This document shows, in pieces, positions 30,001 to 36,000 of a DNA stretch of 48,037 nt. The stretch comes from Gemmatimonadota bacterium. Its GTDB lineage: Bacteria > Gemmatimonadota > Gemmatimonadetes > Longimicrobiales > RSA9. The stretch is taken from assembly GCA_040905425.1 (NCBI GenBank), contig JBBDRO010000100.1, forward strand, positions 184,402 to 232,438, given 5' to 3'. A program made the position numbers. Within the stretch, counting starts at the first letter, position 1. Every line of letters begins with the position of its first letter.

Positions 30001-33000
30001 AGATGGCCAGCACGGCCGCCACGAGCACCAGACCGGGCGGCAGCGGCCGGGCACGGCCAGCGGAATAAGCGACGAGGCTCACGTCATCCTTGTGGCGCCG
30101 CCCGTTGCCAGCTCACAGCAGCGCGCCGGCGTTGGCCGCGATGAGGCGCAGCCCGAGCAGCAGGAAGACCGCCGCGAACAGCACGCGCAGCGTGCGCGAG
30201 TGCAGCTTCCGGTTCAGCCGCGCGCCCAGGCGAACGGCCGGGATGGAGCCCACCAGCATGGGTAGCGCGGCGGCCACGTGGACATAGCCGAGCGAACCCA
30301 CCGGCAGGGTCTGTCCCGACGTCCCCCCGAGGGCGTAGGAGAACGTGCCCGCCAGCGCGGCAAAGGCAATCACCGCCAGCGACGTGGCGGCCACGCGCTC
30401 CATCTCCAGGTGCACCACGTAGAGCAGCAGCGGAATGGCCAGAATGCCGCCGCCCACGCCCATCATGGCCGAGAGCATCCCCACCGCCAGGCCTATTGGG
30501 ATCGTGCGTGCCAGATCCACCCGCAGCGGACCCTGGCCCCGCTTCACCTGCCTGCGCAGCATCTGCGTGCCGGCATATAGCAGAAAGAGACCGAAAAGCA
30601 GACGCAGCACCTCGGGCGGCAGCAGGATGGCCAGCCGGGCGCCGATCAGCCCCCCGACCACGGCAAAGCCGCCCACCGGCAGCGCGGCGTCCCACGCCAC
30701 GTAGCCGGCCTTGTGGAAGGAACGCACGCCCACCAGCGCGGTGGGGAGGATGATGAAGAGGCTGGTGGCGTGGGCCAGGGTGGTCTGTAGCGCCGGCGCC
30801 AACGTCATGCCGTGCCAGCCGGCTCCGTAAAAAAAGTAGAGGAAGGGCACGATGAGTACCCCTCCTCCTATACCGACCAGCCCCGAAGCAAAGCCCACGG
30901 CAAGGCCCACGCAGACCAGCGCGCCGAGGACGACAAGGCTCACGGGCCGTCCCCGGCGCGCGCTGCCGTCACCGCCCACCCGAGCCGGCGCCCACGTTGC
31001 CCTGCCGCCGGTCCTTGAAGGCATCCGCCGCGGCGAACACCTCTACTGGCCGGGTGACCTGCCGCAGGATCTCCGCCGCCGTGCGCACCTGGACGTCTTC
31101 CAGGTTGACGCGCATGCGGGCCGCCTCGTCATTCCACTTGCGCCGCGTGATCTCGATGCCCAGGTCGCGCGTCACCCAGACCTCGGCGGCATCGTATACC
31201 GCCCGCTCAAGGTCGATGTCCGCCGCGCTAAGGGCGGCGTAGAAATCATCGAGCATGGCCCCGGTGACCGTGAAACCGCGCTGGAGACCCGGGTTCTGGC
31301 GGATGACCTCCACGGCGTAGGCAAAGCGCGCGTCGGCGTACGCCTGCCCGTGCTGGTTCAGCGCCCGCACGAAGACCTGCTCGCCGGTGGAAATCGTGTC
31401 CAGACGCACCACCAGATCCGGCCGGATACCGCCGCCGCCGAACACCGTACGACCCATGGTCGTCTGGAAGGTGGGCACGTTGTCCGGCAACCTGTCCTGA
31501 GCGTCAGGGTCCACAGGGTCACCCAGCCCCGGCTGGGGCACTTCCCGGATCTCACGATCGGCATCGATACCGTACGGCCCCTGGATGGAGCGGCCGGAGG
31601 GCGTCAGCCAGCGCGCCGTGGTCATCTTGAGGATGTCCCCACCCGGCAGGTTGAGCAGAGACTGTACGGAGCCCTTGCCGAACGAGGTCTGACCCAGGAT
31701 GAGCGCCCGGTCGTGGTCCTGCAGCGCCCCCGCCACGATCTCCGCGGCCGACGCGGAGAAGGGATTCACCAGCACCGCCATGGGCAGGTCCGCGTAGGGC
31801 TGCTCCACCCGATCCGTCCAGCTCTGGGAGTTCTGCGGCGTGCGCCCCTGGATCTCCGACAGCTTGGCGCCGGGATCCAGGAAGAGGTCGGAGACGGCCA
31901 GTCCGGCTTCCAGCACGCCGCCAGGATTGCCGCGCAGATCCAGGATCAGGGAGGTGGCTCCCTGATCACGCAGCCGGTCGATGGCGTGGCGCAGGCTGTC
32001 CACCGAGGTCTCGCTGAAGACGCTGAGCTCCACGTAGCCCACGCCGCCGTCCATCACGTACGCGGCGGGCACGGAGGTGATGACGATGTCATCCCGTACG
32101 ATGCGGAACGGAATGGGCTCGTCCGCCCCGGCGCGCATGATCCCGATCTCCACCGGCTCACCCTTGGGGCCGCGCAGGCGACTGACCGCCTCGTCCTCGC
32201 TCCACTCGCGGGTGGACTCGCCGTTGACCTGCACGATGGCGTCGCCGGCCATGAGTCCGGCCCGCTCGCCGGGGGTGCCGCGCAGCGGCGCCACCACGGT
32301 GATCCACCCGTTGCGCTTGGCAATCTGGATGCCGATGCCGCCGTATTCACCGGAGGTCTGCAGCACCAGCTCCTCGTACTGGCGGCGCTCCATCAGCTCG
32401 GTGTGCGGGTCGCCGAGCTCCTCCAGGAGCCCGTTGATGGCCATGCGGTAGAGCGAATCCCGGGCGAACTCCTCCACGAAGCTCATCTCCACCTGCCGCA
32501 GCACGTCTTCGAAGAGGCGGGACTGCTCGTAGACGCTGCGCCCCTCCTCCACGCCCCGCTGCAGCAGCCAGCCACCCGTGGCCAGCGCAAAGAACGCCAC
32601 CACCACGGGTGCCAGGATCGTCCGCTTGACCTTCATTCTACCTCCGGATCACCACTGTTGGGTGCGCGTCGCGCGCATACCATTGTTCAACCCCGCCCTG
32701 GCGGGAATGTTTCTGCGAAGCGCTCTTCGAGCAACCGCACGATCGCGCCGTGCACCTCTTGGGGTTCGCCGCTGGCGACCACGCGCGCCACCCCCGTCCC
32801 TGCCCGCCCCGCGAGCAAGCCGTATGCCTCGGCCACGCGCCGGTGGAAGTCCTGCCCTGCCCGCTCCATGCGGTCGGCGGCACCGCGCGCCGCGCGCCGC
32901 GCTTCACCCACGTCTACGGGTACGTCCAGCAACATCACCAGGTCCGGCACCAGACCGCCGGTGGCCAGGGCGTTGGCGGCGCGCACGGCCGCTTCGTCCA

Positions 33001-36000
33001 GACCGCGGCCCGCACCCTGATAGGCCAGCGTGGAGAGCTCGAAGCGATCGGCCAGCACCACCGTGCCCGCCGCCAGCGCTGGCCGCACCACCGTCTCCAC
33101 CAGCGCCGCGCGCGCGGCCAGGTAGAGGTAGAGCTCGGCCACCGCGGGCATGCCCTGGCCGTGCAGCAGCACCCTGCGGATCTCCTCCCCCACGGGCGTC
33201 CCGCCCGGCTCGCGCACCAGCAGGTGGGCTACGCCGTGCCGCGCCATCCAGTCCGCCAGCAGGGCGGCCTGCGTGCTTTTGCCTGACCCCTCGATCCCCT
33301 CGAGAACCAGGAAGAGGCCGCGCCGGCCGCTCTGCTCCGCCATGGACGCGCGCACCTCAGTCCTCGTAGTAATCCAGACCCAGGTGCGTGATCTGGTCCT
33401 CGCCGCCCAGGTGACGGAGCGTGTTCTTCAGCTTGATGTGCTGGATGAACAGGTCGTGCTCCGGATAGAGGTCCGGAGCGGTCATGGGCGCCTTGAAGTA
33501 AAAGGACAACCATTCCTGGATCCCGGAAAGGCCGGAGCGGGCGGCCAGGTCCATGAAGAGCGCCAGATCCAGGACGATGGGCGCGGCCAGGATGGAGTCA
33601 CGGCACAGGAAGTCCACCTTGATCTGCATGGGATAGCCCATCCAGCCGAAGATGTCCAGGTTGTCCCAGCCCTCCTTATTGTCACCGCGCGGAGGGTAGT
33701 AGTTGATGCGCACCTTGTGGTAGAAATCGCCGTACAGCTCGGGGTAGAGCTTGGGCTGCAGCACGTACTCCAGGGCGCCCAGCTTGGACTCCTCCTTGGT
33801 CTTGAAGGACTCCGGATCGTCCAGGACGGCGCCGTCGCGATTCCCCAGGATGTTCGTGCTGAACCACCCCGCCAACCCCAGCATGCGCGCCTTGAGCATG
33901 GGCGAAAGGGTGGTTTTCAGCATGGTCTGGCCCGTCTTGAAGTCCTTGCCCGCGATGGGCACGCCCTTCTGCCGGGCCAGCTCCTGGATGGCGGCGATGT
34001 CCACCGTCAGGTTCGGCGCGCCGTTGGCGAAGGGGACGCCCTCCATGATGGCGGCCCAGGCATAGAGCATGGACGGGGCAATGGCCTCGTCATTGGCCTC
34101 CATGGCGCGCTCGAAGGCCGCGATGCTCTCGTGCGCCTCCCCCGCCTTCTTGAAGATCTCCGTGGAGGCGCACCACACCATCACCAGGCGCGCGCAGCCC
34201 TGTTCCTCCTTGAAGCGGCGGATGTCCTGCCGCAACTGCTCGGCCAACTCCCGCTTGTTGGCGCCCTGCTTGACGTTGGGTCCATCCAGCCGCTTGACGT
34301 AGTTCTTGTCGAAGACGGCCGGCATGGGCTCGATGGCCTTCAGGAAATCGGCGATCGGGTCCAGGTGCCGGGCCTCCAGCACGCCGGCGTTCACCGCCAC
34401 CTCGTAGGCGTTCTCCGGATAGGGATCCCAGGCGCCGAACACCACGTCCTCGAGCCCGGCCAGCGGCACGAAATCCTTGATCTTGGGGTTGCGCCCCTCC
34501 GTCCGCTTGCCCAACCGGATGGTGGCCATCTGGGTGAGCGAGCCCACGGGCTGGCTCTGCCCCCGACGAACGGACTCCACACCGGCCATAAAGGTAGTGG
34601 CCACCGCGCCCAGCCCCGGTACCAGAATCCCCAGCTTCCCCTCCGCCGGGGTGATATCACTGCGACTCATTGTATTCCTCGAGTTGGATCGAAAGCGCTA
34701 GTCGTCGAGCGGCACGCCACGGGCGTGCCGGTAAACCCAGACGATGCGCTGGAAAGCGGTCAGATTGGTGAGGACGGCCAGGATGAGGATCACGCCTTTC
34801 AGCACCAGCCCGTCCCACGCCTCGCCGAAGAAGAGTGCGGCCCCTCCGATGAGGACCACGCGCTCCGCCCGGGGCATGAGACCCACCCGGCAATCCAGCC
34901 CGAGCGCCTCCGCGCGCGCCCGAGTATAGCTGATCATCAGGGACCCCGCCATGGCCAGCATGACCAGGTAGATCATGCCCACGTCACCCAGTTCCTGGCG
35001 GTAGTCGTTGTAGAGGGAAAGGATGCCCAGAAAGACCACGATCTCGGAGATGCGATCCAGCGTGGAGTCGTAGAAGGCGCCGAACTTGCTGCCCAGGCCG
35101 CTGATGCGGGCCACCTGGCCGTCCAGGATGTCGAAGAACCCGCCCAGCAGGATCAGGAAACCCGCCGTGCGCACGTGGTGGCCGTGGAAGAAATACGCCG
35201 CCGCCACAGTGGCCGCGAAGCCCATGGTGGTGAGCGCGTTGGGATGCACGCCGCGCCGCGCCAGTCCGTGCAGCAGAGGATCGATGATCCGATACACCCT
35301 GCCGCGCAGCGATTCCAGTCCGGGCATGGGGCCGCGCTAAGAGAGGATGATGCGGGACTGCGCGCCGGCTTCCATCCCCTTGGCAATCTGCTCGTCCACC
35401 TTGCCGAGCATCTTCTCCAGGTTGCTCTGCGCCGCCACCAGGCCCTGGTAGACCGGCGACGCCTGCAGGGTTGTGGCCACGCGCTCGTACTCCTCGCGGA
35501 TCTCGTCACCCGGCTGCTCGCCTCGCTGCAGGATGCTGCCCACCTGCTGCTCCAGCTCGGCGATGCGGTTGGCCGCGGTGGTGGCCTCCCGGTCCTCGGC
35601 CATGCGCTCGCGCGCGCGCTTCAGCGCCTTGTATTCATCACTCTGGCCGATGAGGCGGCCGAGCTCCTGCGCCCTCGTGGTGATCCCGTCTTCCGGCTGC
35701 ATGTGCCATCTCCCCGTGCTGCTCAGTGATCCAGGGACTCGGCCAGCACCACCCGCGGGCGGTCCGCCAGGTCCCGTATGATGCGCGGTTCTCCGTAGCC
35801 GCCACGCCGACGGACATGATCCGCCACCTCTTCGGCCTGCGTCCAGCCCACCTCCAGCGCCAGCAGACCGCCGGGCTGGAGGCGCGCCCCGGCACCCTCC
35901 ACGAGTGCGCACAGTACCGCCAGGCCGCCCGCGGGCGCAAACAGGGCGTCGGGCGGCTCCCAGTCCAGCACCTCGGGAGGCAGGAGCGGCCGCTCCTCCT

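Follow-up and report, generated by a model that had tools for sequence, protein, structure and literature searches.

Inositol lipids are described as fairly uncommon among bacteria and known mainly from Actinobacteria, Treponema, Bacteroidetes and Myxococcus (PMC9246714). In a 48,037-nucleotide stretch of a Gemmatimonadota genome (the window), the genome-wide survey's note had described a myo-inositol-3-phosphate synthase (MIPS) and a phosphatidylinositol phosphate (PIP) synthase side by side between prmC-ylbF and tmk, which raises the question whether members of this phylum make inositol lipids as well. They very probably do, because the neighbouring genes encode enzymes of the kinds known to make inositol phosphate and to attach it to a lipid.

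A candidate inositol-lipid gene pair in a housekeeping run

The coordinates bear out the reported position: prfA, prmC, ylbF, the transferase, MIPS and tmk form a run of six genes on the minus strand with intergenic gaps of 7-27 nt, and an S41 protease gene, which comes after tmk in many relatives, lies 50 nt beyond it.

37778..37996, minus strand: rpmE-like ORF heading the run, presumably ribosomal protein L31, named from its motif (translation; relatives have related ORFs at this position, cluster 56)
36600..37691, minus strand: prfA, release factor 1 (NF001859, 497 bits, cut-off 400)
35723..36592, minus strand: prmC, release-factor methyltransferase (TIGR03534, 251 bits, cut-off 199; GTG start inferred)
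35337..35702, minus strand: YlbF/YmcA-family protein (PF06133, E 1e-18)
34698..35327, minus strand: CDP-alcohol phosphotransferase of the PIP-synthase/AIP-synthase group, 209 aa (PF01066)
33357..34670, minus strand: MIPS, long form, 437 aa (PF07994, PF01658, 7NWR)
32687..33343, minus strand: tmk, thymidylate kinase (TIGR00041, 158 bits, cut-off 83)
30969..32636, minus strand: S41 C-terminal processing protease (TIGR00225, 296 bits, cut-off 219)

We infer that the genes of the run are co-transcribed, probably with the S41 protease gene on the same transcript. A terminator scan gave no terminator-like match inside the gaps from prfA to tmk, and a promoter scan of the run gave no sigma-70 site; these results carry no weight either way. 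The place of the pair among translation and nucleotide genes would reflect gene-order history and steady expression, without a functional link.

In the pathway that we consider likely, MIPS would convert glucose-6-phosphate to myo-inositol-3-phosphate, the transferase would join this to CDP-diacylglycerol to give PIP, the reaction carried out by mycobacterial PgsA1 and Bacteroides BT_1523, and an unlinked phosphatase outside the PgpA/BT_1525 family would turn PIP into phosphatidylinositol, with a hand-on to ceramide possible in this genome. The chemistry of all these steps, those of the phosphatase and of ceramide included, is read from family, active-site residues, gene order and co-occurrence.

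The MIPS is of the long form

The MIPS scores above the cut-offs of both its Pfam domains (PF07994, 331 bits; PF01658, 110 bits) and matches the structure 7NWR over residues 3-429 with 565 bits (E 9e-169), the next structure reaching 187 bits; this full-length match to a solved and assayed MIPS, together with both domains, identifies it as a member of the family. In line with the structure that PMC9246714 describes, we take 7NWR to be Bacteroides BT_1526. The model of the actinobacterial short type (TIGR03450) gives the window's MIPS 21 bits. A quick MIPS tree with midpoint rooting resolved no donor and gave no direction for MIPS replacement. In two genomes a TGA was flagged inside MIPS; one of them was checked, and there it is the stop codon that ends the gene.

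The transferase keeps the positions of an inositol-phosphate pocket

The signature of CDP-alcohol phosphotransferases, DxxDGxxAR...GxxxDxxxD, is complete in the second enzyme of the pair (D66/D69/G70/A73/R74/G83/D87/D91). Among the AIPS, BT_1523, PIPS, DIPPS, PssA and PgsA models of NCBIfam it passes no cut-off, scoring 159 bits on archaetidylinositol-phosphate synthase (AIPS, NF040950, cut-off 180), 153 on BT_1523 (NF052561, cut-off 350), 139 on actinobacterial PIPS (NF045883, cut-off 170), and 49, 29 and 24 bits on DIPPS, PssA and PgsA; the PIPS and AIPS models appear to be lineage-specific. Its top structures are mycobacterial and Renibacterium PIP synthases, and a protein search returned near relatives with generic names only. 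The label "Bacteroides-type", given earlier to the pair, suits the MIPS on its structure matches, whereas the transferase, judged by these sub-threshold scores, resembles the Bacteroides enzyme no more than it does the archaeal or mycobacterial ones.

For M. tuberculosis PgsA1, PMC6506517 and PMC4634129 list R94, S132, Y133, K135, R137, R152, R155 and R195 in the inositol-phosphate pocket. All eight of these listed positions are kept in the window's transferase (R92, S133, Y134, R136, R138, R153, R156 and R194, with Arg in place of K135), and 94 of 94 aligned orthologues have the same residue, or R/K, at each of them. The position of M. tuberculosis P153 is Ala here and Pro in 27 of the 94 orthologues, and P153A is described in PMC4634129 as nearly harmless. 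Separate PgsA and PssA proteins are encoded elsewhere in the genome, as the survey had stated, both over their NCBIfam cut-offs and both without most of the pocket residues.

MIPS and transferase are kept and lost together

The pair is class-wide, as claimed: among the 183 genomes of the class sample, MIPS is found in 175 and MIPS with the usual transferase in 158, and every one of the 175 has the usual transferase (158) or, failing that, a second PIP-synthase-like gene (17). The five class genomes without an inositol-type transferase also lack MIPS (5/5), and a later check of four more genomes lacking the transferase gave the same result in all four. In one genus, however, two genomes (G010, G089) have no MIPS but retain a diverged transferase. 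A Fisher test, which ignores kinship, is not counted as support. The pathway is phylum-wide, and other classes have a short-type MIPS, which in two of three families lies next to this same transferase.

The adjacency reported earlier also extends to other loci, since the transferase adjoins MIPS in 50 of 52 named Gemmatimonadota loci and in 25 of the best 29 class loci besides the window's own. The description of the pair as fixed in the prfA-prmC-tmk operon does not hold as a class trait: just 2 of the 52 named loci have it between prmC and tmk, and the ylbF/prmC-to-tmk frame surrounds it in 9 of the best 29 class loci, which makes the frame a feature of some lineages only.

An unlinked ceramide-type operon and a candidate replacement island

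A run on contig C87, unlinked to the pair, encodes an epimerase-family reductase, an oxoamine synthase, a 374-aa GNAT protein and a PAP2_3 protein, a Spt/bCerS/CerR/Aur1-like set. The oxoamine synthase matches the Bacteroidota SPT model best (540 bits, cut-off 640). The PAP2_3 protein inside this ceramide-type operon is over its Pfam cut-off, matches Aur1 with E 0.009, ranked below two PAP2 phosphatases, and resembles BT_1522 weakly, model NF052609 matching three of eight relatives (best E 5e-4) and not the genome's own protein. Within the class, the PAP2_3 gene occurs in 112 and the GNAT gene in 129 of the 183 genomes; five MIPS-positive genomes of family f4 have the ceramide operon without the PAP2_3 gene, with a contig end cutting one of the five. 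Such an operon may pass the phosphoinositol head group from some of the phosphatidylinositol to ceramide, giving inositol phosphoceramide, and the chances that it does so in this genome are about evenly balanced.

Co-loss of the Aur1-like gene was discarded as proof of an inositol link: none of seven MIPS-less genomes has it, but six belong to families that seldom carry the gene, which leaves G041 as the one informative case, and the gene is also lost from MIPS-positive genomes. G027, which had seemed to hold Aur1 without MIPS, was set aside as well; there the contig breaks off within the transferase, just where MIPS would be expected, probably an assembly gap.

In all 17 genomes with MIPS but without the usual transferase, the second PIP-synthase-like gene lies beside a Tam41-fold cytidylyltransferase gene, and no such second gene was found in MIPS-less genomes. 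In this island a Tam41-fold enzyme, a lipid kinase and an oxoamine synthase adjoin the related transferase; the fold of the nucleotidyltransferase, at pLDDT 39 from a single sequence, was repeated with an alignment. The window's own genome has no Tam41-like gene by tblastn and no second transferase of the island type. Caulobacter CC_1159-CC_1161 (CpgA/B/C; PMC11324152, PMC12275187) resembles this island of the relatives (not the window) in having a lipid kinase, a CDP-DAG-synthase-like enzyme and a CDP-alcohol transferase by an Spt-like gene, and an NDP-activated ceramide has been proposed for its phosphosphingolipid route (PMC11324152); Caulobacter adds phosphoglycerate, whereas the pocket for inositol phosphate is present in the island transferase, and all checked genomes with this transferase keep MIPS. 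The literature search found no report of a Tam41/CDP-ceramide inositol route. Spt-like genes are reported from 38 phyla in PMC11334938, whose supplement may list Gemmatimonadota.

It is conceivable, if on balance doubtful, that inositol lipids are ancient and near-core in Gemmatimonadota and are made through interchangeable modules: mostly a PIP synthase, an Aur1-like hand-on to ceramide in roughly 60% of class genomes, and, in several lineages that would have dropped the operon PIP synthase and kept MIPS, the island (oxoamine synthase, acyltransferase, lipid kinase, Tam41-fold cytidylyltransferase and second transferase), which would yield an inositol phosphosphingolipid via a CDP-ceramide-like intermediate with no phosphatidylinositol donor. 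If this is true, the displacement of the usual transferase would count as genetic evidence for consumption of inositol phosphate by the island.

The phosphatase step and alternative products

The run contains no phosphatase gene, in agreement with the survey. The phosphatase step of the proposed pathway carries no gene name, because the PgpA/BT_1525 family (the Bacteroides-type PIP phosphatase) is absent from this genome and found in only 2 of the 183 class genomes; members of the genome's seven PAP2-family and three inositol-monophosphatase-family genes could supply it, and the PAP2_3 gene of the C87 run is itself a conceivable candidate. The near-absence of PgpA from the class would also suit a reading that we consider unlikely, in which the transferase loads inositol phosphate onto another CDP-lipid (an ether lipid or ceramide), or in which the phosphorylated lipid is the end product and no phosphatase follows. 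The top NCBIfam score on the archaetidylinositol-phosphate synthase model and the island neighbourhood of the related transferase in other genomes point the same way; against it stand the lack of a Tam41-like gene or second transferase here, the phosphatase candidates just named, and the persistence of the pair in families mostly without ceramide genes (in family f5, MIPS in 35 of 38 genomes and GNAT in 5 of 38).

That the pair makes a soluble inositol phosphodiester of the di-myo-inositol phosphate type, or uses a CDP-inositol donor like IPCT/DIPPS, is improbable. The transferase is weakly similar to A. fulgidus IPCT/DIPPS (4MND, E 1e-6), and the genome is 96.7% complete, so one gene could be missing, but the DIPPS model gives 49 bits where the models of lipid PIP synthases give 139-159, the run holds no nucleotidyltransferase, and no IPCT candidate, fused or separate, was found in the genome: none of its nine NTP_transf_3 genes is IPCT-like, their best matches being MocA, MobA (two), MurU, sugar-phosphate nucleotidyltransferases (three), IspD and KdsB. 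A non-lipid use of MIPS (a mycothiol-like thiol or a surface glycan), with the transferase an unrelated PgsA-like paralogue, is scarcely credible: inositol also occurs in Bacteroides capsule (PMC9246714), and the same MIPS clade has no adjoining transferase in 28 of 28 loci labelled as other groups, but MshC, the Msh gene searched, was not over cut-off (274 bits against 485), the transferase has the pocket that PgsA mostly lacks, and MIPS and transferase are lost together. The invariant pocket, the lack of an IPCT candidate and this joint loss argue for phosphatidylinositol-type lipids made via a PIP intermediate, as the survey had suggested.

Discussion

With the B. thetaiotaomicron cluster BT_1522-BT_1526 (PMC9246714, PMC8791184) this genome shares a long-form MIPS of the same clade, a PIP-synthase-type transferase with no CDP-inositol step, and a putative Aur1-family gene together with candidate ceramide genes. 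It differs in that the run has neither a BT_1525/PgpA phosphatase nor an extra gene such as BT_1524, the distantly BT_1522-like PAP2_3 gene lies in the ceramide operon, the transferase falls far under the BT_1523 cut-off (153 against 350 bits), and the pair is embedded in a housekeeping run and occurs near-universally in the class instead of patchily. With actinobacterial PIP synthases (M. tuberculosis PgsA1 and R. salmoninarum; 6H53, 5D92, 6WM5) and archaeal AIP synthase the transferase shares the full signature and the eight listed pocket positions; unlike these systems, the pair has no adjoining acyltransferase or mannosyltransferase genes, and unlike the actinobacterial one its MIPS is not of the short type and its transferase has Ala for P153.

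A literature search, with most original species descriptions outside its coverage, found no report of inositol lipids or sphingolipids in Gemmatimonadota. In the one lipid profile compared, thin-layer chromatography of Gaopeijia maritima gave PE, PG, DPG and aminolipid and no phosphatidylinositol, which speaks against the pathway; the comparison covers that lipid profile alone. The pathway is known and its enzymes are themselves of known kinds; the main gain is the evidence of their co-occurrence in a group without reported inositol lipids. As the class lacks the one PIP-phosphatase family identified in PMC9246714, a further family might be sought in it. If nearly all members of this abundant phylum of soils and sediments have the pathway, the list of inositol-lipid bacteria would lengthen, and the use of phosphatidylinositol and inositol ceramides as source markers in environmental lipidomics would be affected.

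Gene run and its conservation

On the minus strand of the window, prfA, prmC, ylbF, a CDP-alcohol phosphotransferase, a myo-inositol-3-phosphate synthase (MIPS), tmk and an S41 protease gene follow one another with intergenic gaps of 7, 20, 9, 27, 13 and 50 nt, the first of which depends on an inferred GTG start of prmC. From this spacing we infer that the run is co-transcribed. The central pair resembles its neighbours in GC and GC3:

35327-34698, minus strand, CDP-alcohol phosphotransferase, 209 aa
34670-33357, minus strand, MIPS, 437 aa

Two other minus-strand genes of the window are a Gfo/Idh/MocA oxidoreductase upstream of rpmE (38121-39137; same place in relatives, ORF cluster 55), whose family takes in inositol dehydrogenases, and a gene with the architecture of a Rex-like redox-sensing repressor (28467-29120; PF06971 plus PF02629).

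The genome-wide survey's note had the pair fixed in a prfA-prmC-tmk operon. This describes the window, and the transferase adjoins MIPS in 25 of the 29 best loci of the class Gemmatimonadetes and in 50 of 52 named Gemmatimonadota loci, but the prfA-prmC frame is restricted to some lineages (9 of the 29 and 2 of the 52). The association with tmk goes further back than this frame; of 14 loci retrieved from other classes, 13 have tmk at most 3 kb downstream. Family f12, from another class, has the order thioredoxin-transferase-short MIPS-tmk and the class family f9 thioredoxin-transferase-long MIPS-one gene-tmk-S41, where we take the first gene to encode a thioredoxin from its WCGPC motif. As the order around MIPS is shared, one MIPS type has replaced the other in a common slot. 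By class, the slot between transferase and tmk holds short or long MIPS (loci L147, L149 and L157 versus L160 and L161).

Affinities of the two enzymes

The window MIPS contains two MIPS Pfam domains, each over cut-off. The survey had called both genes Bacteroides-type, which for MIPS agrees with the top solved structure, 7NWR, taken to be Bacteroides BT_1526 (565 bits; runner-up 187), but its clade is not Bacteroides-specific: 28 of the best 80 of at least 598 loci carry labels of groups outside the phylum (Acidobacteriota, Actinomycetota, Krumholzibacteria and others) at 65–74% identity. None of these 28 has a transferase near MIPS in flanks of up to 6 kb.

For the transferase the label has to be dropped: the model of the Bacteroides thetaiotaomicron PIP synthase BT_1523 (153 bits) scores between those of archaeal AIPS (159) and actinobacterial PIPS (139), all under cut-off, followed by IPCT/DIPPS (49), PssA (29) and PgsA (24 bits). 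Among solved structures it best matches the PIP synthases of mycobacteria and Renibacterium, and proteins closely related to it are labelled Longimicrobiales or Gemmatimonadota. The inositol-phosphate pocket described in the consulted parts of PMC6506517 and PMC4634129 (R94, S132, Y133, K135, R137, R152, R155, R195) aligns with R92, S133, Y134, R136, R138, R153, R156 and R194, and the eight positions are invariant or R/K in all 94 aligned orthologues (three cut or split rows excluded). Most pocket residues are missing from the genome's own PgsA and PssA, both over cut-off, which with the window's gene and a truncated one make up its four CDP-alcohol transferases:

C42:6940-7572 (locus L004), cut by the contig end, fourth CDP-alcohol transferase, weak AIPS and PIPS scores (47 and 33 bits)

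In genome G123 the MIPS-adjacent transferase is broken over two frames (L199:4279-4927), an assembly error or a pseudogene.

As to rival non-lipid routes, the window's genome has neither IPCT nor MshC over cut-off; its nine NTP_transf_3 genes, three of them also compared with the PDB, fit families other than IPCT better.

Distribution of the pair

A single draw of 200 phylum genomes (183 of the class, 17 of other classes) served for repeated searches. Long MIPS is present in 175 of the 183 class genomes, the usual transferase in 161 and both in 158; any transferase match occurs in 178, in 17 by a second type only. Four unpublished genomes are part of these counts: G055 and G180 carry both genes, G155 has only the second type, and G095 has neither. 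The eight class genomes without long MIPS have no MIPS-family member; five lack a transferase, one has a copy cut by a contig end (G027) and two, G010 and G089, a diverged copy. These two, of one genus, keep the full pocket without any MIPS (L175, L176), and might draw on imported inositol. In the other classes, all 17 genomes have a transferase and 15 a MIPS, one scanned example being of the 372-aa actinobacterial type (TIGR03450, 532 bits).

A second transferase in relatives

The second type forms a clearly separate clade (100/100 support) in 19 of the 200 genomes; a twentieth, weak match was the usual gene of G159. Of the 19, 17 lack the usual transferase and all keep MIPS. The same pocket is present in 13 of 13 aligned proteins, and a nucleotidyltransferase adjoins in 14 of 14 fetched loci, usually with an acyltransferase, an oxoamine synthase, an ADC-like protein and a DAGK-family kinase. 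The predicted model of the nucleotidyltransferase (pLDDT 89) best matches Tam41 CDP-DAG synthases (E 9e-9). Three loci hold the six-gene set of DAGK-family kinase, ADC-like protein, oxoamine synthase, acyltransferase, Tam41-fold nucleotidyltransferase and PIP-synthase-like transferase:

L192:7234-12819 (G059), island
L193:10403-15883 (G038), island
L203:7241-12831 (G077), island

The island is absent from the window's genome. Since at least seven island-bearing f2 genomes have no bCerS-like match, the acyltransferase may complete the backbone. The island resembles a kinase/CDP-DAG-synthase-like/transferase set of Caulobacter, for which the sections seen of PMC11324152 and PMC12275187 propose an activated ceramide.

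In a second, partly overlapping sample of 150 genomes of the order Longimicrobiales (including unpublished G095, G213, G244 and G290), the second type occurs in 35, alone in 26, and neither type in seven. A held-out check, leaving out four f1/f3 genomes with both types, found MIPS in all 18 new f2 genomes with the second type and in none of four new genomes with neither. In all 13 new genomes with the second type alone the operon reads ylbF-MIPS, the usual transferase being cleanly gone. As kin genomes are not independent, the displacement may represent few events.

Phosphatase step and probable ceramide genes

According to the portions consulted of PMC9246714, the Bacteroides PIP phosphatase BT_1525 belongs to the PgpA family. 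This family is missing from the window's genome and from 181 of the 183 class genomes, and present in all 17 of other classes. In the window's genome the candidates for the step comprise seven genes of the PAP2 family and three of the monophosphatase family. The same genome carries a ceramide-type run, also present in relatives:

C87:2393-6700 (L143), minus strand, epimerase-family reductase, oxoamine synthase, 374-aa GNAT and PAP2_3 protein

The oxoamine synthase scores highest with the Bacteroidota SPT model (540 bits; cut-off 640). We read the run as CerR, Spt and bCerS plus an Aur1-like enzyme, so that a ceramide pathway is likely in this genome; the CerR and bCerS labels are our assumption from family, size and context. 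Past the PAP2_3 gene lies a membrane protein, presumably a CPBP-type protease to judge by a motif. Of the 183 class genomes, 129 carry the GNAT and 112 the PAP2_3 gene, chiefly those of families f1, f4, f6, f7 and f8. Because the PAP2_3 protein shows marginal likeness to Aur1 and to BT_1522, the Bacteroides PI-ceramide synthase, the chances that this genome makes inositol phosphoceramide are about evenly balanced. In G112 (L219:7443-9720), HAD-like and nucleotidyltransferase-like ORFs, labelled from motifs, replace the PAP2_3 gene after the ceramide run, reminiscent of the Prevotella-type alternative cluster.

Lipid record and predicted function

A literature search, in which species descriptions were poorly covered, returned no report of inositol lipids or sphingolipids in Gemmatimonadota. 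PMC8779627 and PMC11271474, searched by keyword, yielded no lipid data, the passages of PMC12816986 and PMC11334938 contain nothing bearing on the phylum, and it goes unnamed in the PMC9246714 supplements. A point against the prediction is the lipid profile of Gaopeijia maritima in PMC11651109, which names PE, PG, DPG and an aminolipid but no PI. TLC of major lipids can overlook PI and especially PIP, whose recovery requires acid extraction (PMC9246714, in the portions consulted). The Bacteroides inositol-lipid pathway is confirmed by PMC8791184. The window pair is not a member of the BT_1522-BT_1526 cluster in the strict sense; known here from its genes, it is predicted with good confidence to act like the two-step PI pathway of mycobacteria and Bacteroides.
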